DNA from: Rotaria sp.
Taxonomy: Eukaryota
Assembly (NCBI GenBank): GCA_905250055.1
Contig: CAJNOF010000042.1
Location: 403,805-467,804 of the forward strand
Direction of reading: 5' to 3'
Length of the DNA stretch: 64,000 nt
Positions 7,493 through 31,858 of the stretch are shown here, one piece after another (position 1 is the stretch's first letter; the number at the start of each line of letters is the position of its first letter). The notes under the pieces are model-generated. The model was not told the origin of the DNA. It ran no database searches and was given only the letters and a program-made list of their open reading frames with translations. The translations under genes were made by a program, and so were the position numbers.

Positions 7493-9387
7493 GATGCGAT
7501 TCACAGCAAGAAGATACTGAATACAAATAAGAAATTAAAGAAAAACTTCAGTCCTTATATACACAGCATGCGACTATAGACAGAGAACGGAACGTATAAG
7601 AATAAATTGAAATATAATCAAAACAACAAAAAAAAAGAGGAAATATGATCCAATGAAAGATAGTAAAATGATATTTCAGTGGAATATTCATTTTTTTTCT
7701 TTCGATACGGATCCATCCATAGAAAATGTCTAGACAATTACTATGAATATATTCTTTTTCTCTTACACAACATTCAGCTAAATTTTCAAAGTTAGTTTGT
7801 TTTACAGTTCATATTTAAATAGGAAATCAACTAAATAAATCAACTGAATATGAATTCGATATTGGAATATTTTCAAGATAAGTTTTATTTGTTGTTTATG
7901 ACATGTGTTTTTTCAGTTCTATCTTTGATTCACTTATTGAATGAACTAAAGTTTAATTTAAAAAAAATAAGCAATATAGCTGAGCAAGCAGACTTTTTCT
8001 CAAACTTTTTTTTTTATACCTAGCATCCCGGAGGAAGGGAAGGGGGTCGAATATTGCCATTTGTACCTGAAGGTCATTTATAGATAATCGTTAACACATT
8101 CATATAAATAGATATGACGAAAATTAAAGGATTTTTAATGTTGAAACCTTGAATTTGTTTTTCTTCGCAATTGAAATATCATCTTTCCGATGAATATATA
8201 TGAAAACTAAGCAATCCAATTTCATTTATATAGAATTCAACAAAAGTAAGTTCGTTTGTAATTTAAAATACCTCTAGGCATTGATGAAGCTATAGTATAC
8301 ATCAATGATCAATCCATTCTGATGTGAATCTTTTAATAGATAATATTTATAATAAAATCATGCTATCAATTTATCCCCATTTATTTTTTCATAAATTTAA
8401 ACAGAATCAATGTTTATTCTTTATTTGTAAAATCTAATTCGATAAAAGAAAAAAGTTCACTAGTTCATTGTTAATATATTATGTGAGTATATTTTTTGTC
8501 TAATCAAAAGTCACTCAAATATTTCAATGATATGTTGTAAAAAAATGAAATATAAGACAATCGACATTATCCTTCAAGAATGATCTTAAACGAATGAAAT
8601 TCGATATTGACAAGTAAATAAACAAAAATAATAAAATATTAATCAATATGATGCTAGACAGCTTGTCTAAACAATACCAAATGAGTAACATATTTATTTT
8701 CGACTTACTTTTCTGAGACTCGAAAGAAAAAGAAATTCTAAAATCGATTAGACTCATATTTAATCATCTTAGATCTGATGTATTTAGTCTTCCAATGATC
8801 AAAGGAAGAAGTATATTGATTAGTTAATATAGGTATATGTTTATGCCAAAATTTGAATAAGAAAGATCTCAAAAAATACAAAGTTAATGTCTTCATTACA
8901 TCGTTGTTCGTTCCATCTACGGAACAATCTATGCTCAGAAATTTTTTTTGAAACACTCATGGTTTTGTTTTTATAACCCTTACTTAAGGATACCATTGTG
9001 AAATAACAGAAAAGATGTTTTACGCTGCTTTCTTGTTTTTTTTTGTACATGAAGAAACTTTTGTCCATCTTGTTTTATATGAAAGAAAAAGAAGCTAAAC
9101 AAAAAGTAATCAATTTTGATATTCATCAAGAATAATTCCTTTTGTTGATGAAGTGTCAGTAACATCTTATTCTGACTCGTCAATTGTTGTTTAAAACAAC
9201 AAGTGAAACTCGATGGAAAGATATGTCAGTACTTTTTTTTAGGTGAAAAAATGATAAGGATCTTATGTAATGGACGTGGATTGTTGACTTTGACATGAGT
9301 GTGCAACAACTTTTTGTTATAGTTTTTTTGTGTCACATGATCAAGTTAGAAAGGTAAAAAGTGCTGAATAATTTGATTAAATAAATA

Positions 9388-11649
9388 ATGAAAAAATCAT
9401 ATTATTGTCTATGGATTTTTCTTATTACAATACAAAAATTTCTTCAATACGGTCAAACTCAATCCATCAATGATGATTCATTAGATCCATTGAGTATGGA
9501 TGAAGCTTATTTAACAATTAGCAATAAAAATTATTCAGAGTCTATTATATTTATGTATAATTTAGTCGTATGTGAAAAATGTAATTTTGAATTCTTAGGT
9601 GATGTTATTCCATATAATTCAAGTGAAACAGTTATAATTAATACAAAATATGCTCATGATTTTCAAATTTTTACTAAATCTACCAATAAAACATTACAAT
9701 GTTCAATAAAATCACATAAATTTTTCGAACATGGATCATATTTATTTGAAATTATTGAAATAGCACAAAATCAAGATATTTGTTCAATAAAACAAACAAA
9801 AGAATCAAGTTATTATTGGTTACCTATAATTATTGGAATGTCAATTCTTTTAACATTTATTTTATTGATTCAATTATGCCATCCGATATCACGTAGTCGA
9901 CTTGTTACTCGTTTTCTTCCAAATGTTATTCAACAAGGATTAATAAATAATGATTTAATTGTTTCATTACCAAATAATCCAACAACAATTACTAATGATC
10001 CTAATGATGATATTATTCGTACACTTTCAACTAGTAGTGAATTACCATTAGTTGGATCAACACGATTATCAAATAATACAATACGTATAACAAAACTTTT
10101 ACCAAAACGACTTCGTTCATTGGATACTTTTCGAGGATTTTCATTGATGGTAATGATATTTGTTAATTATGGAGGTATGATTTAAAGAATAATTTCATTT
10201 ATTAATATATTTATTACTTATTTATTAAAGGTGGTGGTTATTGGTTTTTTAAACATTCAAGTAAGTTTATTTGTTTTCAACATATGAAAGATTTCTATTG
10301 TTATATGTAGTATGGAATGGTTTAACTGTTGCTGATTTAGTTTTTCCATGGTTTACTTGGATAATGGGTGTATCAATTGTTTTTTCACATTGTTCTATGC
10401 GTGCAAAAAGTGTACGAAAAAGAATAATTTTTTTAAAAATATGTCGACGAACTCTCATACTTTTTATTTTAGGTAAGATAAGCAAAAAAAACAAAGAAAA
10501 TTTTTGTTTTTATTTCATTTTATTGTAAAATTTTAGGTTTAATATTACAAGGTGGTTATTCACGATGGGTATATATTCGAATTTTTGGTGTTCTTCAACG
10601 TTTAGCATTATGTTATTTTTTTGCTGCTATACTTGTTTTAATTTTTGATGATGCAGAAGATGAACCATATTCATCACAATGGCCAATACGTAAAAATTTA
10701 ACTTAAAAAAAAAAGAATTAAATTTAAATATTTGTTAATTAAGGTAATGATGTTCGTCAACAAGTATGCACAGAATTATCAAATACTTTCTTTCATTTTT
10801 GGCCACAATGGATTTTTATATTATTAATAACTCTTCTTTGGATATTGATTACATTTATTCCTAAATTTGAAAATTGTCCAAGAGGTTATTTAGGTCCCGG
10901 TGGAAAACATGAACATGGAAAATATCAAAATTGTACTGGAGGTTATTGAACAAAAACAAAATAATTTTATTGATTAATTAAATCATTTTATTTTTTTTAG
11001 GAGTTGCTGGATATCTTGATCGATTAATTCTTCGAAATTCTCATATGGATAATCATCCAACATGTAAAGATATTTATGATACTCAAATACCATATGATCC
11101 TGAAGGTAAGAACAAAACTAAAAGATATCAAAAATTATTATTTTTTATTTTTTATTATTAGGTCTTTTGGGTATTTTAACTGGAACTTTACTTTGTTATC
11201 TTGGTGTTCAAGCTGGTCATAGTTTTGCTCATTCAACACGTATACGTCGTGTTTGTGCACATTGGCTTATATCTGGTTTTATTTGTGGATCTATTGGTTT
11301 ATTATTATCTAAAGGTGGTTATTCAGATGGTTGGATACCAATTAATAAAAATCTTTGGTCACTTAGTTTTATACTTGTTTTAGCTGGTTTAGCTTTTATT
11401 ATTTTAACAATACTTTATTTACTTATTGATGTTTATAAATGGTTTACTGGTGAACCATTTTTATGGTTAGGTATGAATTCAATTGTTATTTATGTTGGTC
11501 ATGAAGTTTGTTCAAAAACATTTCCTATACAATTTCAAGTCGAAGAAACAACACATGCACAATTACTTGCTATGCATCTTTTTGGAGTTTTCTTTTGGAC
11601 AATCATTGCTGGTATTATGTATCGTAAAAAAATATTTATTGCGATTTAA
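9388..11649 (+). CDS. HGSNAT: Heparan-alpha-glucosaminide N-acetyltransferase (lysosomal, multi-pass membrane), 7 exons
   Basis: Exons traced: 9388-10174, 10231-10260, 10311-10472, 10537-10689, 10744-10941, 11001-11105, 11162-11649. All introns are GT..AG, 48-64 nt, and phases are consistent. The product aligns along its whole length to HGSNAT: ...[30 protein letters not shown](I)WNGLTVADLVFPWFTWIMG...RIFGVLQRLA...FWPQW...[33 protein letters not shown]...YDPEGLLGILTGTLLCYLGVQAGH...INKNLWSLSFILVLAGLAFII...LWLGMNSIVIYVGHEV...YRKKIFIAI stop. Confidence 0.85.
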
Positions 11650-11878
11650 TTCTATTGTAATGAATAGCTTCTGTTTTTTTTTCTTTTTCTTTTTTTGAAA
11701 ATAGCTGAATCAATAAATTTTACAATAGTTTTCGTTTTCTTTTTTTTGCATTTTGATAGCATGCTCCCTCTGTTGAAAATTTCTATTGATGAGAACTAAA
11801 AACCTATGTGTTTTATGTAGGTGTATGTGATGAGTAAATGTTATTGTTTCAATACAATATTGAAATTACATTAATAAG

Positions 11879-13188
11879 ATGAGTTATAACGTAGAACTAA
11901 TACCAATTTCTGAAGGTAATCGTATAACAGTAAAAAAAAATGAAAAAGTTATTATTGGACGTGGATCATCATTAGGTGTATGTTACAAAAAGATAATTGA
12001 TTTTTTATTGTTTACAAATTTTTTGAATTTTTTTTTTAAATAGTGTAATGATAAAAAAATTTCTCGTCAACATGCTGAATTATTACTTAAAAATGATGAA
12101 ACACTTTGGATTAAACCAATTCATACTAATCCAGTATTTTATCGCACTTTTCATGGTAAAACAATTCATTTGACTAAAGATATTGAACAAGAATTAAAAG
12201 ATGGTGATCAAATTGGTTTATTACCAACAAGTTTTTTCTTTCGTATTAGTTTTTCTATGAATACAAATAATAATAAAGACGATTTATCTACATCATCAAA
12301 TCAACAGTCACATTATTCAGTAAATAATATTGCGTCTGATAATCTAAAATCAACTAAAATATCATCTCAAGATACTTTATCTAAAATAAAAAGTCCTGAT
12401 GTTGAACCAAAACCATACATTTCAGATATTGATGATTCTACTTCTTCTTCTATAAAAAATCAAGTATATTTTTATGATATTAATATGTTGTACTTTATGA
12501 ATGTAGTTTATAGAATGAATATGAATCAGTTGATTCAAATAATAAATCACGTATATTACCAACATGGATGATAGCATCAACAAAGACTACATCCAATTCT
12601 TCCTGTCTACATGATTCATCATCTAGTGATCGTCCTGCTGTTAAACGGCAATGTAAGTACATATTTATTATAATGAGTCTATCTCAAATAAATTCTCAAC
12701 AGTGAATTCAGAAGAAGATAACAAAAGTAATACAAATGATTTATCAAATACGTCTGGTAAATTCTATTATATCTTGTTTATCTATTTTTCCTTTTTGTTC
12801 TTTATTTGTTTTTTTAGACGCATCAGTTACAAAGTCAAGTAAATCATCCGTAATAAAAAGCTTTGATAGTGATAGTAGTGATGGATTTGATTCTGTTACT
12901 ACAAAAAAAAGTATTCATAAATATTTATTATTGATTATTGACTACAGTTTGAATTTAGTTAAATCAAATGATAAACGTCGTCCAGTTTGTTCATATGGTG
13001 CATCATGTTATCGAAAAAATCCAACGCATCGTACTGAACAATCGCATCCAGGTGATTCTGATTATGAGGATGAAAAACAAACGAATAATGATAGTAAAGA
13101 TGATAATGATATTGATAAACCGATATGTCCTTATGGTAAATCTTGTTATCGACAAAATCCTCAACATAAACGTGACTACACGCATTAA
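11879..13188 (+). CDS. APLF: APLF-like NHEJ scaffold: FHA domain + Ku-binding motif + two PBZ (PAR-binding) zinc fingers, 5 exons
   Basis: Exons 11879-11977, 12044-12463, 12514-12652, 12703-12756, 12818-13188 (GT..AG introns 50-66 nt, phases consistent). N-terminal FHA-like domain: MSYNVELIPISEGNRITVKKNEKVIIGRGSSLG|CNDKKISRQHAELLLKNDETLWIKPIHTNPVFY...DGDQIGLL. Exon 3 carries the Ku-binding motif NKSRILPTWM. The C-terminus has two C-x5-C-x6-H-x5-H PBZ fingers: PVCSYGASCYRKNPTHRTEQSHP and PICPYGKSCYRQNPQHKRDYTH. This domain combination is diagnostic for APLF. Confidence 0.8.
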
Positions 13189-15360
13189 GTTCGGTATTTT
13201 TTTTTACTAGTTAAATAACCGGTGATTATACATAAATGAGACATTCTGTTTTAGAAATTATTGTATTTGTATGTATATAGTCTATGTAGTAAAGGAAGAT
13301 CTCTAAGTGCAAGTCTCTATTATCCATCGGCTTTCTACCAGTTTATAGAATTCTATGAACTGATCACGATAACGTCAAGTGTATTGTTCTCCATAGACTA
13401 TCTTTAAGAAGTTAAATGGATCTCAAACTTCATCGATACATCTTAATTGACTGTATACATATACGCATAGTCAACATAAATAGAAGTCCCAATGAGTTCT
13501 GTACTTTTTAATATTATTAATACGGTGATTTTATGGAATTAAATAATTTATGTTTATGTTGATGTGGATAGATAATGAAGGGGTATTTAATGTTAATGTT
13601 TTTGATGCTGAGAACTAAACTAGCATAAGAGCTACAATTTACGAAATAATAGCTTACAGTCATTTTTCAGAAGTTGAGATCAAAGTAACTCCTCAAAAGA
13701 TATTCTATGGAGAAGAATGTACAATGTTATTGTGATTAGATCAGAGAACTCTACAAACTGGTATAAAGCCAAATGGCAACGGTGACTTACACCTATAAAC
13801 CTTCTTTCGTCAGTGTATTGTTGCTACAGGATGTTGAAAAAAAACAACAACAGTGTATTTGAGAATGAAACTTTGAAATGAATTATTTTTAAATGATTGA
13901 TTGTGATACTATTTTAGGTTATTTTGTTTGAATAATGTACTGATGCTCTAATTGAAGTTTTACTAAATAAAAATACATATAATCAAGCTTATGTTAAGCA
14001 TAAGCATTTAATGAATGTTACTATTTGATTTTTTCGATCTGACAAAAACTATTAAATATTTTGTTCAGACGATTACATTTATATTTTATTTATATAAAGT
14101 AACAAAATAATTACTTTGTATCGTGAATAGACGATTGTGTCTATCTCAGAAGAACTGTAAACAAAAGAATTCATCGAAGTATTGTTCACACTATTGTTAG
14201 ATTTTTTTAATTAAAATGCTAACCACATTTATTTTTGAATAACTTTCGATTATATACAACTATTAGAATCGAATTTTCATCACTAGATAGATCAATTTTG
14301 AGGACATCAAACTGTGTAATATTCATTAGATTCTAATATGTTCTTCATGCATATGTGTAGGTAAGAGAGTCATGTTTTCCCATAAAATTCCCAGATTTCA
14401 GAAAGCTTCCCTTAAAACATCAATCCAGAATAAGGATAAAAAAATCGAACAATTGTATATAAGTAATAGAACACTCTTCGTGCTATATTTTGGCTTGATT
14501 TGAGCCTAAATTTTCTACGAAAACTTGTATAAATCGGCAACGAAAAACATATCCATTTTGAAAATATTTATGAAGAATTTCTTTGAAATAGATGAATGTT
14601 AGACAAATAGGCATCTCTAAAATTGCTTCATTTAATGACGAATACTCAACCTAAATAGCTATGAACGATCGAAAACTATTCAAAAAATGGTGATTGATAT
14701 TTTAATAAAAATTTGACAATAGAGTTATACTACGATTAATAATTTTCAAATAGCAAAACAATCAATGTAGATGAAAAAATTTCTTGTATTAAAAACAAAC
14801 TATTTAACATCTACAAAAACAAATGCACAGATGTTTTGTGCCGGTGTACTTCTATAGTGACTTATTTTCATTATTTTTATGTATTTTTGTTGATATTTTA
14901 CGTACGTTTTTTCATCTTCTATATACAGAAGATACATAAATATAAGAGATATATCTCTATATGTCATATATTTGAATTGGAATAAGTTTCCAGAAAATCT
15001 ATAAAAGTCTAAAAAGACAGATAATGAGTTTTGTTATACTAATCATTCATTATCGCATGTATTAATTTGATCATCGTATTAGAGGCTGAAGCGAATAAAA
15101 AAATCTCCATTCGAGTTTGATTCGATTCTGTTCAGGCGATTACTGTCCGAATGGAAAGTAGTCGAAAAAATATGATTAAAAGCTGATTTACAACAAAAAA
15201 TAGATAGATGTCATTTGACACTCGGTATTTTATTAAAAGCAACGCATGTTGCTTTAATATACGCATATGATTACTGAATATTAAAAGATTCACTCAAGTA
15301 AACGGTGTTTAAATTGAATTATACATCTGTGATATACTATTAACTTTCCGCATCTAAAAT

Positions 15361-15840
15361 TGCCTATTGTATATAAACTGCTATTGGGTATGGCCAGCTA
15401 ACTCTGCTACCGGAGTGAAATTCCGTAACGTTTTTCGCTTATTTTGTTTTCTCGATAAATATCAGGCAGTAGCACATGAAGAGTTGCGAGACGTCTTAAA
15501 TTAAAGAGACAAGTCTTGTACATATTTTAAGATATTTTTCGCTTTTGGAACATTTGTCGTTTCCAAGATATAACAAAAGAATTGAACACCACTTTTGAAA
15601 AAGTAATAATTTTCAGAATTGAAAAGTAGTTATCAGTTTTTTAATTATATTTTGGAAACGACAAACGTTCCAAAAGCGAAAAATATCTTAGAATATGTAC
15701 AAGACTTTTCTCTTTAATTTAAGACGTCTCGCAACTCTTTACGTGCTACTGCCTGATATTTATTGAGGAAACAAAATAAGCGAAAAACGTTACGGAATTT
15801 CACTCCGGTAGCAGAGTTAGCTGGCCATACCCTATTGTTT
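15361..15840. repeat. Near-perfect long inverted repeat (foldback element), arms ~200 bp, loop ~40 bp
   Basis: 15375-15600 (ctattgggtatggccagctaactctgctaccggagtgaaattccgtaacgtttttcgcttattttgttt...) reappears as its reverse complement at about 15640-15838 (...aaacaaaataagcgaaaaacgttacggaatttcactccggtagcagagttagctggccataccctattg). The arms are nearly identical along their whole length and carry no ORF. Confidence 0.65.
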
Positions 15841-17359
15841 TCTTTTGCATATATGCCATGAAATATTAATGTATTAATTTAATCAGTGCCGATTTCATCA
15901 CGAAACATAAGAATTCAAACTTGTTTAAGAAAACCTTTTATGCCTTGTTATGAAAGTTTTCAGTGGTTTTTGTCATGAATATTTCATAAGGACCAACTTT
16001 TATATCCATGTTTCTCGTTTTATCGTGCTTAATTGTTACTGAAGTGCTCCTTCAATACTGCGAGTTGCAGATGATTATTAAAAAAATACTTAAAAAAATT
16101 GATGATTATGCTACTTTTTTTTTCTACTGAATGATAGATGATCCACATATTTTTGTTCTTCATCAAGCTGTAATGAAATATTTTTCAACTTCGTTCTTTT
16201 CTACCGTTCCTATGATTTTTCTTGCGGATCGATTATGTGCTTTAGAGAATGAAGCGGATATAGACATCTTCATTTGATTTGATTCGATTTTGGTCTTTGC
16301 ATTATAGTGACTCATCATCTATTTTATTGAGTGTCATATATGTAAATTGTGTATTGTATGGACTTTTTTTAACGATGTTGTTCTCTCCTTCTTTCATATA
16401 GCTTTGATAGCAACTTCGATTAAATTAAATAAAAATGATAAAACAAGTGATGTACTTGAAGTTGATCTTGGCGAAAATAATGATTTTTGTATTTCGATAG
16501 TCAATCGAATATTTTCGAGAACAATTCGACTCAAGTGAATGAATGCAACATCGAGTCCGATTAGATCTGATCATATCTGAATAGTCGACAAAATTCGATG
16601 AGAATTCAGACGGCTAAATCACTAATGAATTCGATGGCCGGGTTAGGATCGCATTCCTATAGAATCATACCAATCATTTTCAATTTTCGACCAGTCTTGT
16701 TTGTTCTGATTAGGGGTGTGCCATTAGAACTCTACAAGAATACATTCAATCAGACGCTATTTAACAGGACAGCGTTTTTTGTTTTATCCTGTCGTACGCT
16801 CATGGAAGATTTTATAAATTGTGTTTGTTTATGAACAAGATTATTAGTTGAATAAAATGAAAAGATCTTTTTCAAATTTAATATTTGTAAGCAAGTCATA
16901 TCATTTCTAAATACTGATACTATTCAACTAGACACATCTGAAAAACCCTCCGTTTCAGAAATTTTTACCAAATAGTTCTTTTTCCTACTGAGCAAGTAGA
17001 GCTTGCTTAAAAAAATCTTCACTCTCTTATAATCGTATCGATAGAACATCGGCACCATCACCCTGGATGTATTGAAGAGAAGACCTACACTCACTTACTG
17101 TCTCAACGATTGTCATACTGTAAAATACTTTTAGACAGTTTTAGGTATCGACATGAATAAACATATCCTATTAGAGTTTCAAAATTTTCCACTACTTTCT
17201 TAAAAATAATTCCGTTCTCAAGACATTAAGTCGCATTAAAGAAAATAGTTGACCCCTAGTTGTGACAGTACGGCATCGAAACGTCAAAACATTAGCTCAT
17301 ATTTTTCATTGATATATTACTGATGGTTTATCATAGGTGAAGAATCTGAACACGACGTC

Positions 17360-17446
17360 AGATTTTTGATTTTTTTGAATATTTTCTTTATGAATCGTTG
17401 ATTAATTTAGGTATCTTTCATAGCACTTGACGTCGTATACATTCAA
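17360..17446. promoter_or_regulatory. Two CRE-like palindromes (TGACGTCA / TGACGTCG) ~80 bp apart, ~520-600 bp upstream of the DGK start codon
   Basis: cacgacgtcagatt at about 17360-17373 and acttgacgtcgtat at about 17433-17446. Each has the palindromic ACGT core of cAMP-response/bZIP sites. Purely motif-based. Confidence 0.15.
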
Positions 17447-17959
17447 AATTGTAGAACTCGAAGATTTAGTTCGAATGAAAAACTAACTTTTTCAATAGCT
17501 ATATTTACTTCCAATATTGTACTGTTCAACTGTTGGATATAATAGTTGCAATCGTTCCTCATATTTTCTATAGAAATTGACCAGAGAACTATCATAGACG
17601 AATAATCTGAAGTCTATATCAGGTTTCAATTTTTTTAAATATTTCATAATATGAATTACCAAACAGTTTTTTTTATGATATTCAGATAAAAAGATTACTA
17701 TACGATGTATTCTCATTTACATGTAACAAGATGCCTAATGCATCGACTAGAGTCGAGCTGATCATGATTATCGATTAGTTCTTAAATTCTGAACACATTG
17801 TTATATGATCTAAAGAGTTAAGCAAATTATGCTGGTCTTTTTTTCTAGCATGTTTTATTTCGAATCTATTTGTTTGATTCTAGATTTTTTGTCTAAGTTT
17901 CACAGACATATCATCTGTTTCTATTTCTCCAGAAGACTGTTTAATATCTGTGATCAATT

Positions 17960-20901
17960 ATGACTACATTACCATCTGCTGCGTCAACCGATTCGACTTT
18001 GCCCATCGATGACAATAGTGAATTGGGTGATTTTCATACTGTAATGAAAGAAAATCCGTCGACTAATATTAATCAATACAATCGAGAACCAACTTCTTGC
18101 TCACTTGAACATGATCTACATCGATTAGACTTAAGCGATAGTCCAAAAGTAGTAGAAAATATAAAAGTGAAACGATCGAATTCTTTACCGACGATTTTGT
18201 TTGATCCGATCGATAGATCTTTATCGCCATTCAACCATCAGAGATTACCTGTAAACTATATAAATGATGATCATGGTGTAAAATTTTATTTGTTTCCATC
18301 ATCGACCCATAATGTGGTAGCTGGTCAACCATCACCTCTTTGTGATCAATGCTTGCCGAGAGAAGATAAGCAACCAATCGAATCTCAGTCACTCATCGTC
18401 TTGAATCAGATAAAGTATTTACGGAGCGCCTTATGAGAAAAGAACAACAGGTTGCTTGTTTTTTGTTTTTCAGAGTTTCCCAACCACTTCTGACTACTAA
18501 ATCAGTGGGAACGTTCTCTGGATCCTGTAGCAAAGCTTCCATCTCATATGGAGTCGATTGGAGCGAACGTGCTCATCCCACATCTCACTGTTGGTTTCCC
18601 TTCATATGCAAGGATCCATCGACGGATCAATTATGTGCCCACGTATCTTGTATAGGTGTAAAACCAAGCTATCAATCTGAATTTGTACAATGTGGATCAT
18701 GTGATTTGGTTGCACATTCGTATCACTTGAAAGATTCACGGGTAATCGAAGCCAATTTTCTTCCACCCTGTCGTCCGTCCTTTGTCGACAACACAACACT
18801 TGGAAATTCACTTCCCGAGAGCGAAAATAATCCATCGAAATACGATGAACATTTTTGGTCTCATGTGAGCGTACTTCCGAAACCGTGCATGTACTGCCAA
18901 CAGATATCAACGACAAAAACCCTATTCAAAAGTAGAAGTGGTCGATTATTGGGAGCGTCTGCTTTAGATATCATCGGTCAGGCCACGTCGGCTATGAATT
19001 CTATATCGAGCAATTGCAGTTTAAATGTATCTGGATCTTCTGAAGGCCTCGCTTGTTTATGGTGTTTACGAAGCTATCATCGGCCGTGTTGGAAAAGTCT
19101 TGCTGATGAAGATAAAAATACTCAATGTGACTATGGAATATTTCGGTAAGTTTTTAATGATGATTATGCAGGTCAAATAAAAAGAAACCTTGCATGTTTG
19201 TAATGCCTACGAGAATGCTCGGTCATACTTCTTGTTAGATTTATCATTATCTTGACACTTTTCTACTACTGTTCATTAATGATTATTACTTAAGTTTGAT
19301 TTGATCGTAGAATCAATGGATATTGAAGCATGCTTACAAATATGCAGAGTTCGAGATATATTCAAAAGAAAATCCTTTCCGTTTTTTGAGTTCATCGAGA
19401 AATTGTTTAGAATGCTTTGATCGTTGTCTTCCTTCAACTCTAATCACTCGTTGAGATCAATATGTTGATTTTCTTCGATAGAAATATTATTGTTCGACCG
19501 CAGTGGCTCAGTCGTTCCAGCGAATCTTCAACTGATTTCAAAGCTCGTTTGTCTTTGCATGCGACTAATAGCAACTTTGAATCAAACTCTTTTCCGTATA
19601 CACCCGTTATTGTATTCATAAATAAACGTTCTGGTGGCCAACAAGGAGAAAAAATTTATCGGAAACTATTACGAAAACTCAATCCACGTCAAGTATTTCT
19701 TCTAGAAGACAATGCTACAATCACACATGCTCTTAACATCTACTCGTCGCTACCTAATATCCGTTTTTGCGTATGTGGAGGTGATGGAACCGTGGGTTGG
19801 ATTCTTGGCCGTCTAGCTGAGGCTTATCCATCGAAAAATAATCCACCAGTAAGCATTTGTCCTTTAGGAACGGGTAATGATCTTTCACGCGTATTAGCTT
19901 GGGGCGAACAATACGATTCAAAACGTCTTTTTGATATGCTCGTACAAATTCCACAAGCTAAAGTAGTTGCACTCGACCGTTGGGAAGTTCAGCTTGAACA
20001 ACTCGACGTAACAACATTGTCTTCACAGACACAAGCAAAGCAAAAGAAAGGATTTCAAATCGGTCATCCATTTCAAGTGCTAGTCAAGCATCCGAAATTT
20101 GTTCGCGAAAAAAAGCAAGTCTCCTATGAACATCATCAGAAGTTACCAAATACACACTTTATCAATTACATGAGTTTCGGTTTAGACGCAGCCATTACAC
20201 TAGATTTTCATGATAAACGCACACGTGATCCATCGAAATTTTCGTCACCATGGAAGAATAAGCTCATGTATGTAAATAGAAGTTGCAAATATTTCAGTGA
20301 TTTTGCTCAAGCAAATATGTGGAATCTTGGCTCTTATATTCGTTTGATATGCGATGGTCGTGATCTAACTAATGCTATAGGTGATTGCCATACATTAGTC
20401 GTACTTAACATTCCAGGTTATGCAGCCGGTACGAATCCGTGGGGAAAATCTTCATCGACAAACTCAGTTTTCTTCTATGGTGATCAATCGTCGATCTTTC
20501 AAAGAGATAATGATTCTGCCGATGCCAAGGTAATAAGTGCAGTTAATGTATTCGGTTCATTAGCTGCTACACGCGAAGCTATTAAATCTGTTACTTTGAA
20601 TGAAGATGATATGCATCAAATGGCTAGCTCATCGACAACAGCAATCTCAACTGTTTGTGTCGAACAACAAGATTTTGGCGATCAAAAACTCGAAATTGTT
20701 GGCTTGAATACTACACATATGGCTACAATTCATATGGGTTTTACTGGCAATCGGATCACTCAATGTAATCAATTGCGAATAGAACTGCGCAGTCCAATGA
20801 CGGCACAAATGGATGGTGAACCATTCTATCTTCCTGCTTCAGTAGCTGTCAACATTAATCATTCTGGCCAAGTACTTGTGTTAAAAAATCAGAACGAATA
20901 G
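17960..20901 (+). CDS. Diacylglycerol kinase with two C1 (phorbol-ester/DAG-type) zinc fingers + DAGK catalytic + accessory domains; 3 exons
   Basis: Exons 17960-18414, 18474-19145, 19482-20901 (introns 59 and 336 nt, GT..AG, phases 2/2). Exon 2 has two Cys/His-rich C1 fingers (HCWFPFICKD...CAHVSC...CGSCDLVAHSYH and HFWSHVSVLPKPCMYCQQ...LACLWCLRSYHRPCW). Exon 3 has the DAGKc signature PVIVFINKRSGGQQG...LNPRQVFLL...FCVCGGDGTVGWILG...PPVSICPLGTGNDLSRVLAWG and the accessory domain. No EF-hand, PH, SAM or ankyrin domain was seen, so a simple (type III/epsilon-like) architecture is the best guess. The ~150-aa N-terminal exon-1 region is unassigned. Confidence 0.85.
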
Positions 20902-21974
20902 ATAAAAATATTAACTTTTGTGCGTGGTTGCAGTGCATACACTAAATCTAGCACTATTTTCGATTGATAAAATAAAAACATGTTGAACTTTGAATGAAGT
21001 TCATCGCTGAGTATCAACGATGTCGATTGTTACTTTTTTCTCCAGAAGATTTTTTAACAATGGTCTCAACACCCTGACTGAGAAGAAAATCGGCTTGAAT
21101 AAGTCATCGCCTTTAAGGTCTTATTTCTGCTCAACATGAAGGACTTTGAGAGTAAAATACCTGTGCAATATTTCAGGCTCATAGTACAGTTTTCTTGAGC
21201 TATAGTCATTTTTGATGAACCTTTTAGTTGTAGCGAGCTATTTTGTTTCCAAGTTTTAGCAACAATAGATCTGTCTTTTGCAACTTATTAGATTTATCAA
21301 AGAAAGCAATAAATCCTTCTCTTAGCATAGACACAAGAATGAAGTCGTTTCATGAACCTAATATCTTGAGGAAGTATTTTATGGTTAATTTGATAGAAGT
21401 CGTGTCGAAAATATTGAAAATCTTTATTATATGATGATTTTTGGAATACCCTGTATTGTCAATATTTTCTTTGATCACAGTTGAACACAACAAGTCTACT
21501 TCAGTATAAATCCTATAGGAAAGAGGACAATGGGTTCTATTTTATATACAACAAACGGAAGACAGGAAACGACGTAAACCATCACAATTATTGTTGATAA
21601 TCATATCGATAGTTTCAACATTTTCGATCACAATCAAGACTAACTTCTCTGGATAATTTTTACACGCTAATGTCAAAGTTTAGCCTTCTATCGAATACAG
21701 CCATCGTTGAATTATATGAGCATATTAAATTTAAGAATAAATAAACTTTGAAAAATGTCTCGATTTTTCGATCCTCTCTCACATATTCTATTAAATGCCT
21801 AACAGATCTAAATACTGTTATTTGTACACGTTGTAGATATATGATTATACTAATAGTGAAAATGTAAAACTGTGCTAGTAATCAAACAATGAGAATGAGA
21901 TTACCAGTTACATCTATCTATGTATTCAATAGAATATTAGTTGAAACTGACAAGCACGACAAGAGTCAATAATG

Positions 21975-24900
21975 TCAAAAACGAGTAACTAGTGGTGGTG
22001 TTGGAAATGGGACTGATATTGGTGGTTTGAATTTTTCATCCAATAATTTTTTCTTTTCTTGATATTCAAGTATTGCCAATTGTTTCCAACTATCTATAAG
22101 TATTTGTGCACTGTATTCGATCTCTTCTTGATCTTTCATGGAATCGAGTAAGCCACGATGTCTACCCATGCACATAACAAGTATGATCACAACTTTGCTT
22201 GGTGAGCTGAGAACAGAGACAAGACTCGGCATTCCTTTCGCCAATCCCATTGAAAGGCCACATCCACCAAAAGCACTCATCACTTCGAATATCACACGGA
22301 GTACTGTAATAGTTGGATCATTAGGTGTCATACGAGGCGATTCAAAACTGCAAATAAGAAAGATAAAAATAAATAGCCATGCTCGAGTCGATATAAGAAG
22401 ACTGAAGAAACTGAGAATGACATGTCGACAGAAAATGATCAAAAAGAGTTTCATACGAAGTAGAGATATATGAATATTGCTTTGATTGAATTCTTCATTT
22501 CGATTTCTTATATAACCCAGATCAGCGGATACAATACTCAAACGATGTTGATTTCGTTTGTCATTCAGTTCCTCAAGAGCTGCTTCAACACGATTGAGAG
22601 AAATCGTTGAAGCAAAATATCTATTTGCTTGAGCTTTAGTAATCGAGCCTTTTCGCAAAAGATAATTTTGCATTCGATTAAATGGTAAGAAAACTTTAAA
22701 GTTGGCATTTTGGCTACCATTCGATACGTTATTTTCTAATGTTTGTTGCGTTTGCAAAAGAATCCATTCCATTTCAAAGGGCGTTTCATCAATTGCACAC
22801 AACTAAAAAGGAGAAAATGGTTATGTGTTATGTGTCGGAAAAAATTGTCGTGACACTTCGAAAGAATAAAAATGTCAATGCAACAGGGTAGTTTCAATCG
22901 TGAAAAAGAACGAAATTTTCGCCTTATTCATTAGTACTATCAGGTTAAGTTTAACCCATCTGAGTACAAAGATCTATGAAAAATGACCAACAACTATACG
23001 TTCCTCTGCTGAAGAGCGAACTTATTCGAAGCTAACAAAGAATACAATTCAATAGAAAAATATTGACAGGCAAATTAAGGGTTGTTACTAATGTCGGATT
23101 TATTTTTAACAATAACAACGATCATTTTTTATGTGTAGAATTCATTATTTTCGAATAGTTTTCAGATTGATACTATTTTCGTTACTGATTGTCATTAGTT
23201 TATAGAGCAACTTCAAGTAAAACTAAACCAAATTTAGTACAAAATCGTCCTTTTCCTATGGAAGATTATCATTTTTTTTAATAAAATTCTGTTAAAATGG
23301 TGTCAAATAGATAATAAGATCATATGAAAATTCTCTAATGATTTCGATCCGTAAAAGTTCAACTGTAATTCATAATCATATTTGACAAAAGAACAGTAAA
23401 CGTACCATTTGAGGCTTGATACCCATCAAGAGAATAAAAATAATCAAAGTTCCCGCAGAAAGTACGCTTATATCGATTGTTGCATAACCTTTCACAACAA
23501 AAACAAAAATAAGTGTACATTTTTCCACTAAAATATACTAATCACTCAGTACCTCCAAAACGAGTGTTCACTGTCTGAAGCATAAATATCATGAATCGTT
23601 GACCTTGGCTATATATCACCAATGCATCGTTATGAAAATCGTTCACCAAACACACTGCTACACCAACTGAAATAATGAAAAAAAACAATAAGTTAAACTA
23701 TTCGACAATATGATCACTGACGTATCTGTAACAAAACGGTAATAGTAACATAGAGTCGTGTTTGAACAGATGGATATATCACAGTAGATAGCCGATGATT
23801 ATTCAATAAGATATAATCAAAATAGATCTTATGTCGCCAACTGAAAATAGTAATATTTTAATTAGCTATTTTAAAATTTAATGTGAAGGAGGAATCAGTA
23901 AAAATACTTACGGTACCATATATTTGAGTAATTCGACAATTCCATGAAGAATGGCCGGAAATAAAGATGTACCAGACATGACAATAAGCATGATGATTAT
24001 GTTCATGAAGACATCCGTGACAAAACGTGACATACCGCCTTTCCTAGAAACACTTTTCTTTTATACAAAAGATCTGTCAACAAGTATAAATTTCTGACAA
24101 AAAAATTATTCAAACTCTATCACTTTTGAAACTATGTATATAGACACATAGAATAAAATATTAAATACGATACCATAGTGAAAGGCCATTTTGATTGAAA
24201 CCGGTCAGAGTGATGACAATTGAAGCATAGAACGGATCCACTGTTCTGTTGTCTTGACGTAAAAATTGTGGATCATAATGATATTTAAGCCACATACTAA
24301 TGGTAAGAAATGAGATAAGATAAATAGCGAAACAAGTCGAAAGAATGAGAATAATTAGGATGATATATGCTGTAGTACGAAGATCTTTTGGACTAGGCAG
24401 TAATCGAAGACGTTGGTCCAATATGGGATCAGTAGAATTGATTCGAACAAGTTTTGTAATTGGTAAGCTATTGTCATTGATAGTCGATGAAAGTGTTTCT
24501 TCATCAGGTGTTATTTCGCGTTTGACTCGATAAATCTTGATGAAAATAGCAGGAAGTGTACTGACCGTAATGCCTGTATGATAAACACACAGAAAAATCA
24601 TAGATGATCTGTTTTGATTAAAAGTTTCGTTTCTTTTCTATCATTTTTGTCCTATTACCTGAAATTACAGTAAAAATAAGTAATACAATTTGTGATGCTA
24701 GACTGTATGATCCAAAATCGTAAGTTTCCAATCCACATGTAAATACACATGTTGCACTCGAAAACCAACAATCGAGATAGGATACACGTTGTTGTTCAAT
24801 GTTCCAAATGATGACGCCGCACAAAAGTGTATTGCAGAAAAATACCGATAGATGTATGTAAAAATAATGTCGCATACGCCATTCATAATTATCCCAAAAT

Positions 24901-25049
24901 TTTCTCCATTTTGAACACCAAATGCCTAATGGAATGACGGCATCAGCAGTAGCATTGATCATATTGATCTCTGCTTGAACCATACTGCGTTCAGTTTCAG
25001 TCACAGATGTAACCGATGGTTTTCGATCAAAGCCGAAATTATTCATCAT
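21975..25049 (-). CDS. TRK/HKT/TrkH-family K+(Na+) transporter, ~6 exons
   Basis: Exons (minus, approximate): 25049-24659 (MMNNFGFD...RHYFYIHLSVFF...YLDCWFSSATCVFTCGLETYDFG...QIVLLIFTVISG, the first M-P-M selectivity segment and the fungal TRK HYFYI motif); 24573-24176 (...STDPILDQRLRLL...ITLTGFNQNGLSL, the second pore loop); 24043-~23912 (KGGMSRFVTDVFMNIIIMLIVMSG...); ~23666-23553 (...QGQRFMIFMLQTVNTRFGG); 23488-23406 (GYATIDISVLSAGTLIIFILLMGIKPQM); 22802-21975 (...TVLRVIFEVMSAFGGCGLSMGLAKG...VVIILVMCMGRHRGL..., the last pore loop and the GRHRG motif typical of Trk/HKT). Introns 80-600 nt, GT..AG. One junction (exon 3/4) has an unresolved phase. Confidence 0.75.
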
Positions 25050-30670: not shown

Positions 30671-31858
30671 ATGAAAGCTGCTATCTATTCAAAGAATTCC
30701 ACCAATAGTGTGAGGCTCGCCACCGTTCCACGTCCAACACTAACAACAACAGTGTATGAGCCGACTTCCACTAACATAATCCGTTTTTGGTCTTTTCAAA
30801 TAATCAATCTTGTTTTCACTTGCATTAGTCATTTTATGTGCCTACTACGTTGGTTGTTTCCTAGTATTCCGGGTCCTTATGGTGAAGTGACTGACCGCCA
30901 GTGGGTACTATGCCGTGTATATTGCGGTGGCGTGAATCCGGTAGATGCAAAATTTCTTTATGGAGACAAATTGCCTCACTTCTGTTTACCTCTGGTGAAA
31001 TGGTTTGTTGAGAGCAGAATTTGCGGCATTGACTTCAGTGGTATAGTAGTCGAAGCTCCTCCAGGTTGTAAGTATACAGTGGGCGACGCAGTTTTTGGTA
31101 CAATTCCTCCGTTTTGCGGCTCGTTCGCAGAGTATGTAAGGGCACCAACTGATTTCATCTGCCACAAACCCAATAACAAATCGTTTGCCGAAGCATGTGC
31201 GATACCTTTAGTTGGTTTGACGGCTCTGCAAGCTTTCGAGGACAATAATCTAATGGTTGGACAGCATGTTCTGGTTCTGGGCGCTTCGGGTGGAACTGGA
31301 CATGTTGCCGTACAAATAGCCAAGATCAAAGGCGCAAGAGTGACTGCAGTAACTAGTTCACGTAATGCAGATTTCGTTAAAGGTCTTGGCGCAGACGAAA
31401 TTCTCTTCTACGATCTATCTACAAATATATTAGAGGATTTACATGTTGTTACATTACGTCATGGTCCATTTGACTTAGTTTTTGACTCTGTTTCCTCCCA
31501 TGATCTGCGAGATGCAAATTTTGCTTATGAAACTCGAATTCGTAATACGAAACCCAAATTAGTTACTGGAATGTATATTTTAATTGGAGGTATCGTAACG
31601 GACTGGGTTCTTGCACACATCAAACGATTTTTTGGTATTGACTGGTTCGCAAATGGCAGACAGCTATTCTGGGTCAGATTTCCGGATAGCACTAGGAGGC
31701 TCGAATCATTGCGTCAATTTTGTGAGGCCAACCAGCTCAAGGTAGCAATAGCCAATCGTATGCCATTTACAGAAGAAGGTATTCAGGAAGCATTTCGTTT
31801 GCAAATGAATCGTCGTACTGTAGGTAAAATCATTATTGAAATGATTTCCGAAAAGTAA
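30671..31858 (+). CDS. Medium-chain dehydrogenase/reductase (zinc-binding ADH / quinone oxidoreductase / RTN4IP1-like), 2 exons
   Basis: Exon 1 30671-30753 (MKAAIYSKNSTNSVRLATVPRPTLTTT), exon 2 30865-31858. The 111-nt intron gtatgag...cctag is AT-rich, in-frame and stop-free, which is why the track shows one 395-aa ORF. MDR hallmarks: GEVTDRQWVLCRVYCGGVNPVDAKF (GroES-like N-domain), NAD(P) fold VLVLGASGGTGHVAVQIAKIKGARVTAVTSS, C-terminal ...RRTVGKIIIEM. Coding GC is visibly higher than the rest of the window. Confidence 0.8.
   Translation: MKAAIYSKNSTNSVRLATVPRPTLTTTVYEPTSTNIIRFWSFQIINLVFTCISHFMCLLRWLFPSIPGPYGEVTDRQWVLCRVYCGGVNPVDAKFLYGDKLPHFCLPLVKWFVESRICGIDFSGIVVEAPPGCKYTVGDAVFGTIPPFCGSFAEYVRAPTDFICHKPNNKSFAEACAIPLVGLTALQAFEDNNLMVGQHVLVLGASGGTGHVAVQIAKIKGARVTAVTSSRNADFVKGLGADEILFYDLSTNILEDLHVVTLRHGPFDLVFDSVSSHDLRDANFAYETRIRNTKPKLVTGMYILIGGIVTDWVLAHIKRFFGIDWFANGRQLFWVRFPDSTRRLESLRQFCEANQLKVAIANRMPFTEEGIQEAFRLQMNRRTVGKIIIEMISEK

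Follow-up and report, generated by a model that had tools for sequence, protein, structure and literature searches.

Gating of the bacterial transporters TrkH and KtrB depends on TrkA and KtrA, while the related eukaryotic TRK and HKT proteins are without these partners. Four filter glycines go with K+ permeability in these proteins, and Na+-selective HKT1s have a Ser in pore loop A. In the papers found, the Trk/Ktr/HKT superfamily is described from bacteria, archaea, fungi and plants, for example in PMC4714889. The gene studied here is a member of this superfamily (TRK in the following). It lies on the minus strand at positions 21975-25049 of the window, a stretch of 64,000 nucleotides (nt) of contig CAJNOF010000042.1 from the bdelloid rotifer Rotaria sp. 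(assembly GCA_905250055.1). An earlier note, made from the letters of this stretch alone, had presented the gene as belonging to a family that is not described from animals. This held in so far as no named non-bdelloid animal was matched in any protein search, in which many matches were unnamed and genomes themselves were not searched. The gene is much less anomalous than it had seemed, since a bdelloid host often holds foreign genes. Horizontally acquired genes are well known in bdelloids (Eyres et al. 2015, PMC4632278; Nowell et al. 2024, PMC11258130).

Comparison of the available sequences suggests, with a probability of roughly 75%, that the intact gene was acquired long ago by horizontal transfer from a heterolobosean-type microbial eukaryote and was then intronised.

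Relatives of the gene and its probable donor

The homolog from Adineta steineri (P0001) was used for an exhaustive phmmer search, which returned 1395 matches. Below the bdelloid-like matches followed full-length proteins with 29-37% identity, and those with names came from Acrasis kona (three), Naegleria lovaniensis and Percolomonas cosmopolitus, all of them Heterolobosea. Among the named non-bdelloid matches in the best 150 of the 1395, which were protists, algae and fungi, there was no land plant.

The phylogeny that the earlier note had proposed was calculated by neighbour-joining (NJ) on simple distances from 125 full-length proteins (439 columns, 100 bootstraps). The bdelloid TRKs were monophyletic with 100% bootstrap support. 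Together with 18 protist or metagenome sequences, namely five named Heterolobosea and 13 environmental ones, they formed a larger clade which also received 100%. Fungi, Amoebozoa, Paratrimastix, Cyanophora and Chlorokybus fell outside it, so that the bdelloids stood with the heterolobosean-type proteins and not with fungi.

The same clade is marked by an insertion of eight residues after M2C, (I/T)KPQMxCxL. It is present in all bdelloid sequences and in most of the protist clade (72-100% of the clade members) and is a gap in 92 of the 92 other aligned TRKs, those of fungi and Amoebozoa included. The motif SMKDQE after GRHRG was found, among the aligned TRKs, only in the bdelloids and the heterolobosean-type clade. 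The window protein reads IKPQMLCAI and GRHRGLLDSMKDQE at these two sites. Its identity over the full alignment was 27-31% to the protist clade and 20-25% to fungal TRKs. By tree and insertion, the nearest relatives are thus heterolobosean-type protist TRKs, and the fungal, plant or bacterial type that had been proposed for the gene was not upheld. The donor is best put as a microbial eukaryote with a heterolobosean-type TRK, because the order inside the clade is poorly supported (<20%).

Gene structure and intron history

The gene runs from the ATG at 25049 to the TGA ending at 21975, exactly where the earlier note had placed it. The spliced product has 688 amino acids (aa) from a 2067-nt open frame, and the frame stays open only with seven exons. 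Six introns are needed instead of the five counted before; the 55-nt intron 4 had been overlooked. All six are canonical GT-AG introns, as had been stated for the five, with sizes of 85, 130, 71, 55, 64 and 603 nt. A non-GT donor for intron 4 was ruled out as it leads to a frameshift; the donor GTCAGT keeps the TRK frame open. The gene has the following features:

21975..25049, minus strand: whole TRK gene from ATG to TGA, 7 exons and 6 introns, 688 aa (splice model; Pfam TrkH E 4.5e-31; exon sizes identical in the ortholog from Rotaria sp. Silwood-2)
24659..25049, minus strand: exon 1, 391 nt, with the N-terminus, HYFYIH (24852-24869), M1A and pore loop A SATCVFTCGLETY (24720-24758, filter Gly106)
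24574..24658, minus strand: intron 1, 85 nt, GT..AG, phase 1; position and phase kept in A. steineri (P0001) and R. sordida (P0002)
24174..24573, minus strand: exon 2, 400 nt, with M2A, the cytosolic A-B loop, M1B and pore loop B TGFNQNG (24185-24205, Gly260)
24044..24173, minus strand: intron 2, 130 nt, phase 2
23912..24043, minus strand: exon 3, 132 nt, with M2B
23841..23911, minus strand: intron 3, 71 nt, phase 2
23722..23840, minus strand: exon 4, 119 nt, with M1C; donor GTCAGT
23667..23721, minus strand: intron 4, 55 nt, phase 1; also in the Silwood-2 ortholog
23553..23666, minus strand: exon 5, 114 nt, with pore loop C NTRFGG; the codon of filter Gly386 is split by intron 5
23489..23552, minus strand: intron 5, 64 nt, phase 1
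23406..23488, minus strand: exon 6, 83 nt, with M2C and the first part of the 8-aa insertion typical of the clade, split as KPQM/LCAI
22803..23405, minus strand: intron 6, 603 nt, phase 0; 573 nt in the Silwood-2 ortholog
21975..22802, minus strand: exon 7, 828 nt including TGA, with the cytosolic C-D loop of ~110 aa (22467-22790), M1D, pore loop D SAFGGCGLSMG (22245-22277), M2D with GRHRG (22152-22166) and the clade motif SMKDQE (22125-22142)

All six introns recur, with position and phase unchanged, in the Silwood-2 ortholog and in the genes of A. steineri (P0001) and R. sordida (P0002). No intron interrupts the Naegleria gene or three close relatives from the environment (metagenome or Logan sequences); one of these relatives was found on a compact eukaryotic contig of 75 kb that also encodes alpha-actinin, Spo11 and PLD. 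Two A. vaga genes from two other bdelloid paralog clades (P0016 and P0026; L006 6001-8197 and L007 6001-8073) have one intron each. It sits at a shared site in phase 0 near window residue 284, unlike any intron site of the window gene. The Logan contig L014 encodes a contiguous 715-aa protein of the P0016 type that leaves no room for this single intron. This would fit a spliced transcript, if the run is RNA-seq. Because the protist relatives examined are intronless and the six introns are confined to one paralog clade, the simplest reading is that they would have been gained after the transfer, on the stem of the window's paralog clade and before the split of Adineta and Rotaria.

The middle part of intron 6 does not align with its 573-nt counterpart on the Silwood-2 contig (L001), and long introns occur elsewhere in the gene in other species, namely intron 1 in A. 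steineri (883 nt) and introns 1 and 5 in R. sordida (1000 and 700 nt). The window gene begins with ATG ATG, and the Silwood-2 ortholog reads GTG ATG at this place (L001 2586-2591). As the ortholog has GTG at the first ATG, the second one (25046) is probably the true start codon.

Family membership, motifs and fold

Membership in the Trk/Ktr/HKT superfamily, as claimed in the earlier note, was borne out when the spliced protein was compared with profile hidden Markov models (HMMs). Pfam TrkH (PF02386) matched in three stretches (108.3 bits, E 4.5e-31; gathering score 27). In the NCBIfam ranking, the eukaryotic TRK model TIGR00934 was best with 145.5 bits, followed by 66.3 bits for the bacterial TIGR00933; both scores are far below the curated cut-offs of 441.9 and 331 bits, respectively. 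Every motif quoted earlier was recovered in the spliced translation: HYFYIH (aa 61-66), SATCVFTCGLETY (98-110), TGFNQNG (254-260), NTRFGG (381-386), SAFGGCGLSMG (589-599) and GRHRG (626-630). The filter glycines G106, G260, G386 and G592/G595 are kept in 100% of the bdelloid sequences. GRHRG in M2D is invariant in bdelloids and nearly so over the 125 aligned sequences.

The nearest solved structures by sequence were plant HKTs (E 6e-14), followed by KtrB (E 1e-5). Structure comparison was carried out with an AlphaFold2 (AF2) model of the A. steineri homolog P0001, which is 65% identical to the window protein. The model matched HKT structures best (E 3e-13, target TM-score 0.77-0.80), then KtrB, TrkH and KdpA, with a probability of 1.00. 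Its confidence (predicted local distance difference test, pLDDT) was 66.5 for the whole model, with values of 70-92 for the membrane core. A conserved, partly helical and cytosolic insert of ~110 residues separates repeats C and D in the model. The A-B loop of the window protein measures only ~45 aa. No RCK or TrkA domain was found with Pfam among the 20 large open reading frames (ORFs) scanned, a search for a partner confined to the 64-kb window. By HMM, motifs and fold, the gene product is securely a member of the Trk/Ktr/HKT superfamily, but its membership in the strict fungal TRK subfamily is not secure.

Embedding in the rotifer genome and selection

The 47 best database matches to the window protein were all from bdelloid rotifers, whose assemblies were published by Nowell et al. 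2021 (PMC7943196). Identity was 65% for A. steineri, ~62% for Rotaria species, 47% for Didymodactylos carnosus and 44% for A. vaga. It reached 89% for a partial protein of Rotaria sp. Silwood-2, and no database protein was identical to the window TRK. The window would accordingly stem from a close relative of Rotaria sp. Silwood-2 or represent a second, diverged copy of the region. Of two further profile searches of proteins, one matched bdelloids only and the other mainly bacterial TrkH.

Window 9368-24612 has a collinear counterpart on the Silwood-2 contig L001 (79-87% DNA identity), where the gene order TrkH, DAGK, FHA/PBZ (APLF-like) is that of the window. The neighbour of TRK on both contigs is a diacylglycerol kinase (DGK) gene:

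19462..20901, plus strand: last large exon of the DGK gene (Pfam DAGK_cat and DAGK_acc); adjoins TRK in L001 too

The DGK ORF ends at 20901, is convergent with TRK and lies 1,073 bp from the TRK stop codon, in agreement with the distance of 1 kb given before. Synonymous divergence (dS) between window and L001 was 0.38 for TRK and 0.41 for the DGK exon, and therefore the two have travelled together. GC content at third codon positions (GC3) was 0.30 for TRK and 0.29 for the DGK exon in a window with a GC content of ~31%; the composition of the TRK gene is that of its host. The gene is neither contamination nor the product of a chimeric assembly, because the independent Silwood-2 assembly has the same block and the dS of TRK and DGK is equal. 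The earlier note's view of a gene embedded in animal DNA thus stood, and a chimeric boundary between DGK and TRK, which it had considered, is excluded.

At Pfam level the neighbours are of animal type, as had been said of them. This applies to DGK (DAGK), APLF (PBZ), a G-protein-coupled receptor (7tm_1), a PARP4-like gene (PARP, VIT and VWA) and TDO2 (Trp dioxygenase). The proposed check of synteny in related species showed that the block is shared with the close Silwood-2 copy only, and the neighbourhood is not conserved around the 62-65% identical relatives in A. steineri and R. sordida.

The Silwood-2 ortholog was rebuilt from L001; its ORF is intact and its seven exons match those of the window gene in length. 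Between window and L001, nonsynonymous divergence (dN) of TRK was 0.064, which with a dS of 0.38 gives a dN/dS of 0.166. The respective values for the DGK exon were 0.112, 0.41 and 0.27. TRK is under purifying selection.

Another gene of the window stood out. At 30671-31858 on the plus strand lies an uninterrupted 395-aa ORF similar to medium-chain (zinc-type) dehydrogenases or quinone oxidoreductases. It has the top GC content in the window (0.42) and a GC3 of 0.35, compared with 0.09-0.30 in other exons. Because it is intronless and of odd composition, this ORF may itself have been acquired horizontally.

The bdelloid gene family

The tree contained at least four bdelloid paralog clades, each with Adineta and Rotaria, and support was 100% for three of them and 78% for one. 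A Didymodactylos sequence joined the window's clade as its sister with weak support (55%). Because the paralog clades span Adineta and Rotaria, the placements in the tree indicate that the gene was acquired, and duplicated at least in part, before the sampled bdelloid genera diverged. Metagenome proteins of ~400 aa with 40-43% identity begin just past the single-intron site of the other paralog clades and can be interpreted as second exons of environmental bdelloid genes. The six-intron clade contained no A. vaga protein (best A. vaga match 44%); the species may have lost this paralog, or the paralog may be unannotated.

Several public gene models of the family appear to be mis-annotated. P0031 (ENA, 878 aa) seems to be translated through the single intron into an unrelated tail, P0017 (R. 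socialis, 887 aa, 'F-box domain-containing') looks fused to an adjoining gene and P0011 (Rotaria sp. Silwood-2, 471 aa) omits exons although the L001 DNA has them intact. In the A. vaga model P0039, splicing breaks down at aa 19, probably through a mis-annotated N-terminus. The homolog P0068 was considered as a transcript and rejected, as it is a genome fragment. Other transporter genes were seen beside TRK paralogs, namely a CorA-family Mg2+ transporter gene in A. vaga (L007 8377-9678) and a Na+/H+ exchanger gene in A. steineri (L003 12362-16000). CorA-type genes may be another non-animal-type transporter, possibly of foreign origin.

Alternative explanations

Foreign genes of bdelloids are often ascribed to fungal donors, and a fungal TRK1/TRK2-type transporter would agree with TIGR00934 as the best NCBIfam model, which rests mainly on fungal TRKs, and with an Orbilia TRK as the only named non-rotifer match in the first protein search. 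However, the proteins of Orbilia (P0067) and Aulographum (P0200) and their clade lie outside the 100% clade of bdelloid and heterolobosean-type sequences. Fungal TRKs have neither the 8-residue insertion nor SMKDQE, their identity to the window protein is below that of the protist clade and the TIGR00934 score amounts to one third of its cut-off. A fungal donor is therefore improbable. Vertical retention, the alternative that the earlier note had set beside an intronised ancient transfer, is about as improbable. It would mean that the TRK of an animal ancestor was kept only in bdelloids and lost in the other sampled animals. The spread of TRK over eukaryotic supergroups does make an ancestral eukaryotic origin of the family plausible, and the gene is wholly host-like in composition, introns and linkage. 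The main weakness of the case against retention is that the searches covered proteins and not the genomes of rotifer sister groups and unicellular holozoans. Yet the bdelloids group with Discoba protists and not with fungi, which are the other opisthokonts in the tree, and the shared indel agrees with this grouping. The differing introns of the bdelloid paralog clades fit recent gain better than ancient inheritance, many independent losses would be required and no named non-bdelloid animal was among the protein matches. Tree, insertion and introns favour the intronised transfer.

A contaminant read from a protist or fungus, or a chimera joining a foreign gene to rotifer DNA, would have nothing in its favour beyond the non-animal affinity of the protein. 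The TRK-DGK-APLF block with matching dS in the assembly of another Rotaria genome, six short introns that keep their sites and phases in three further bdelloid genomes while the protist relatives are intronless, and a GC3 like that of the neighbouring gene leave practically no chance for such an artefact. A different question is whether a real and conserved gene still serves K+ uptake or has become, for example, a Na+-selective, anion-leak or organellar channel. Cl- currents are carried by fungal TRKs as well, and the HKT1s of plants select for Na+. The window protein has odd residues next to the filter, with Cys-rich pore loops A (TCGLE) and D (GGCGL), as well as the long, conserved and partly helical cytosolic insert between repeats C and D, and it scores well below the subfamily cut-offs. 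The four filter glycines are present nevertheless, a pattern that goes with K+ permeability under the glycine-filter hypothesis for HKT and Trk, and GRHRG in M2D is conserved. Such a change of role is considered unlikely.

Several points weigh against an intact TRK from a heterolobosean-type donor. The tree was built by NJ on simple distances, and the sister group inside the 100% clade has support of <20%. This clade consists mostly of environmental sequences, so the donor could belong to an unsampled group and not to Heterolobosea proper. That monogonont rotifers, unicellular holozoans and other animals are without the gene was concluded from named protein matches only. With 145 bits against a trusted cut-off of 442 for TIGR00934, the protein is not a typical fungal-type TRK, and the structural model is that of a 65% identical homolog with moderate confidence (pLDDT 66.5).

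Proposed history, function and meaning

Under transfer from a heterolobosean-type donor, an ancestor of the living bdelloids would have acquired a TRK gene horizontally from a microbial eukaryote. Duplications would then have produced the paralog clades, at least four in number, while base composition became like that of the host. Spliceosomal introns would have been gained too: six in the clade of the window gene, and a single one, at another site, in two further clades. The protein is a single chain with four M1-P-M2 repeats, which by homology form a pseudo-tetrameric, K+-channel-like pore with a selectivity filter of four loops. It would take up K+, possibly together with Na+ (K+/Na+), across the cell membrane, driven by the membrane potential and without an RCK/TrkA partner. 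K+ uptake, ion selectivity, location and physiological role of the window TRK are putative and derived from its relatives. The KPQM insertion, which lies where M2C ends on the cytosolic side, and the C-D loop of ~110 residues are both common to the clade. The chances are about even that bdelloids run a working multi-paralog K+ uptake system from a protist-derived TRK, which would be the first functional Trk/Ktr/HKT transporter in an animal. It can be speculated that the transporter serves to scavenge K+ from dilute fresh water or to recover ions on rehydration after desiccation.

If this history is true, it is a clean and datable transfer from a eukaryote to an animal, after which one paralog lineage gained six introns. 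A selectively maintained and expanded Trk/Ktr/HKT family in an animal is a real exception to the usual description. Bdelloid gene acquisition would account for it, so that nothing is overturned and the event is of a kind that is ordinary for bdelloids. The case is of value as a case study in which the donor type is narrowed by a shared insertion. The lineage-specific intron gain, with six in one clade and one in two others, is relevant to the manner and timing of intron entry into transferred genes. Modest interest attaches to these documented gains and to the apparent protist donor, and the gene family yields a testable hypothesis on K+ uptake in a freshwater, desiccation-tolerant animal.

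Comparison with known systems

No paper was found that describes a TRK/HKT-type transporter in bdelloids or any other animal. Homologs of the window protein are already public as 'unnamed protein product', and the A. vaga protein B3G4R2_ADIVA is listed in UniProt as 'unknown', its accession presumably pointing to a deposit of 2008.

The heterolobosean TRKs of Naegleria lovaniensis (XP_044548726), Acrasis kona (KAL0489516) and Percolomonas cosmopolitus (A0A7S1PEQ0) are uncharacterised; KAL0489516 is annotated as 'low-affinity potassium transport protein'. They share with the window protein the 100% clade, the insertion KPQMxCxL, the motif GRHRGxxxSMKDQE, the N-terminal motif WRxxYFYIH and a long C-D loop. 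They differ in sequence (27-31% identity) and in that the protist genes are intronless compared with six introns in the window gene, and the bdelloid proteins form a long-stemmed clade of their own with several paralogs.

Fungal TRK1/TRK2 proteins (TIGR00934), such as the low-affinity potassium transporter of Orbilia oligospora, resemble the window protein as single chains with four repeats, four filter glycines, GRHRG in M2D and no RCK partner, and theirs is the best-scoring curated subfamily model. They are unlike it in sequence (20-25% identity) and are without the insertion and SMKDQE. Fungal TRK1 has a very long hydrophilic A-B loop, which differs from the ~45 aa of the window protein. 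The plant HKTs (PDB 8k69 OsHKT2;2, 8k66 OsHKT2;1 and 8w9n AtHKT1;1) are the nearest solved structures by sequence and fold. The K+-permeable class II HKTs have Gly in pore loop A like the window protein, but identity over the structural alignment is only ~15% and the rotifer protein is ~110 residues longer between repeats C and D. Bacterial TrkH and KtrB with their TrkA/KtrA RCK rings belong to the same superfamily and have the same fold but are much more distant (KtrB E 1e-5).

Among transferred genes in bdelloids, some of which were reportedly described by Gladyshev et al. in 2008, the window TRK is in familiar company. The supplement of Eyres et al. 2015 (PMC4632278) lists 'potassium_transporter' candidates with bacterial best matches and Gene Ontology (GO) terms that do not fit TRK. 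One example there, Rotaria tardigrada RTART0002259 with 275 aa, carries the GO terms K+ transport and nucleotide binding; it resembles a TrkA/RCK-type protein and not a TRK membrane subunit. Like other anciently transferred genes of bdelloids, the window TRK is a non-metazoan gene linked to metazoan ones, ameliorated, intron-bearing and present across genera. It differs from them in its nearest relatives, which are eukaryotic protists and not bacteria, fungi or plants.

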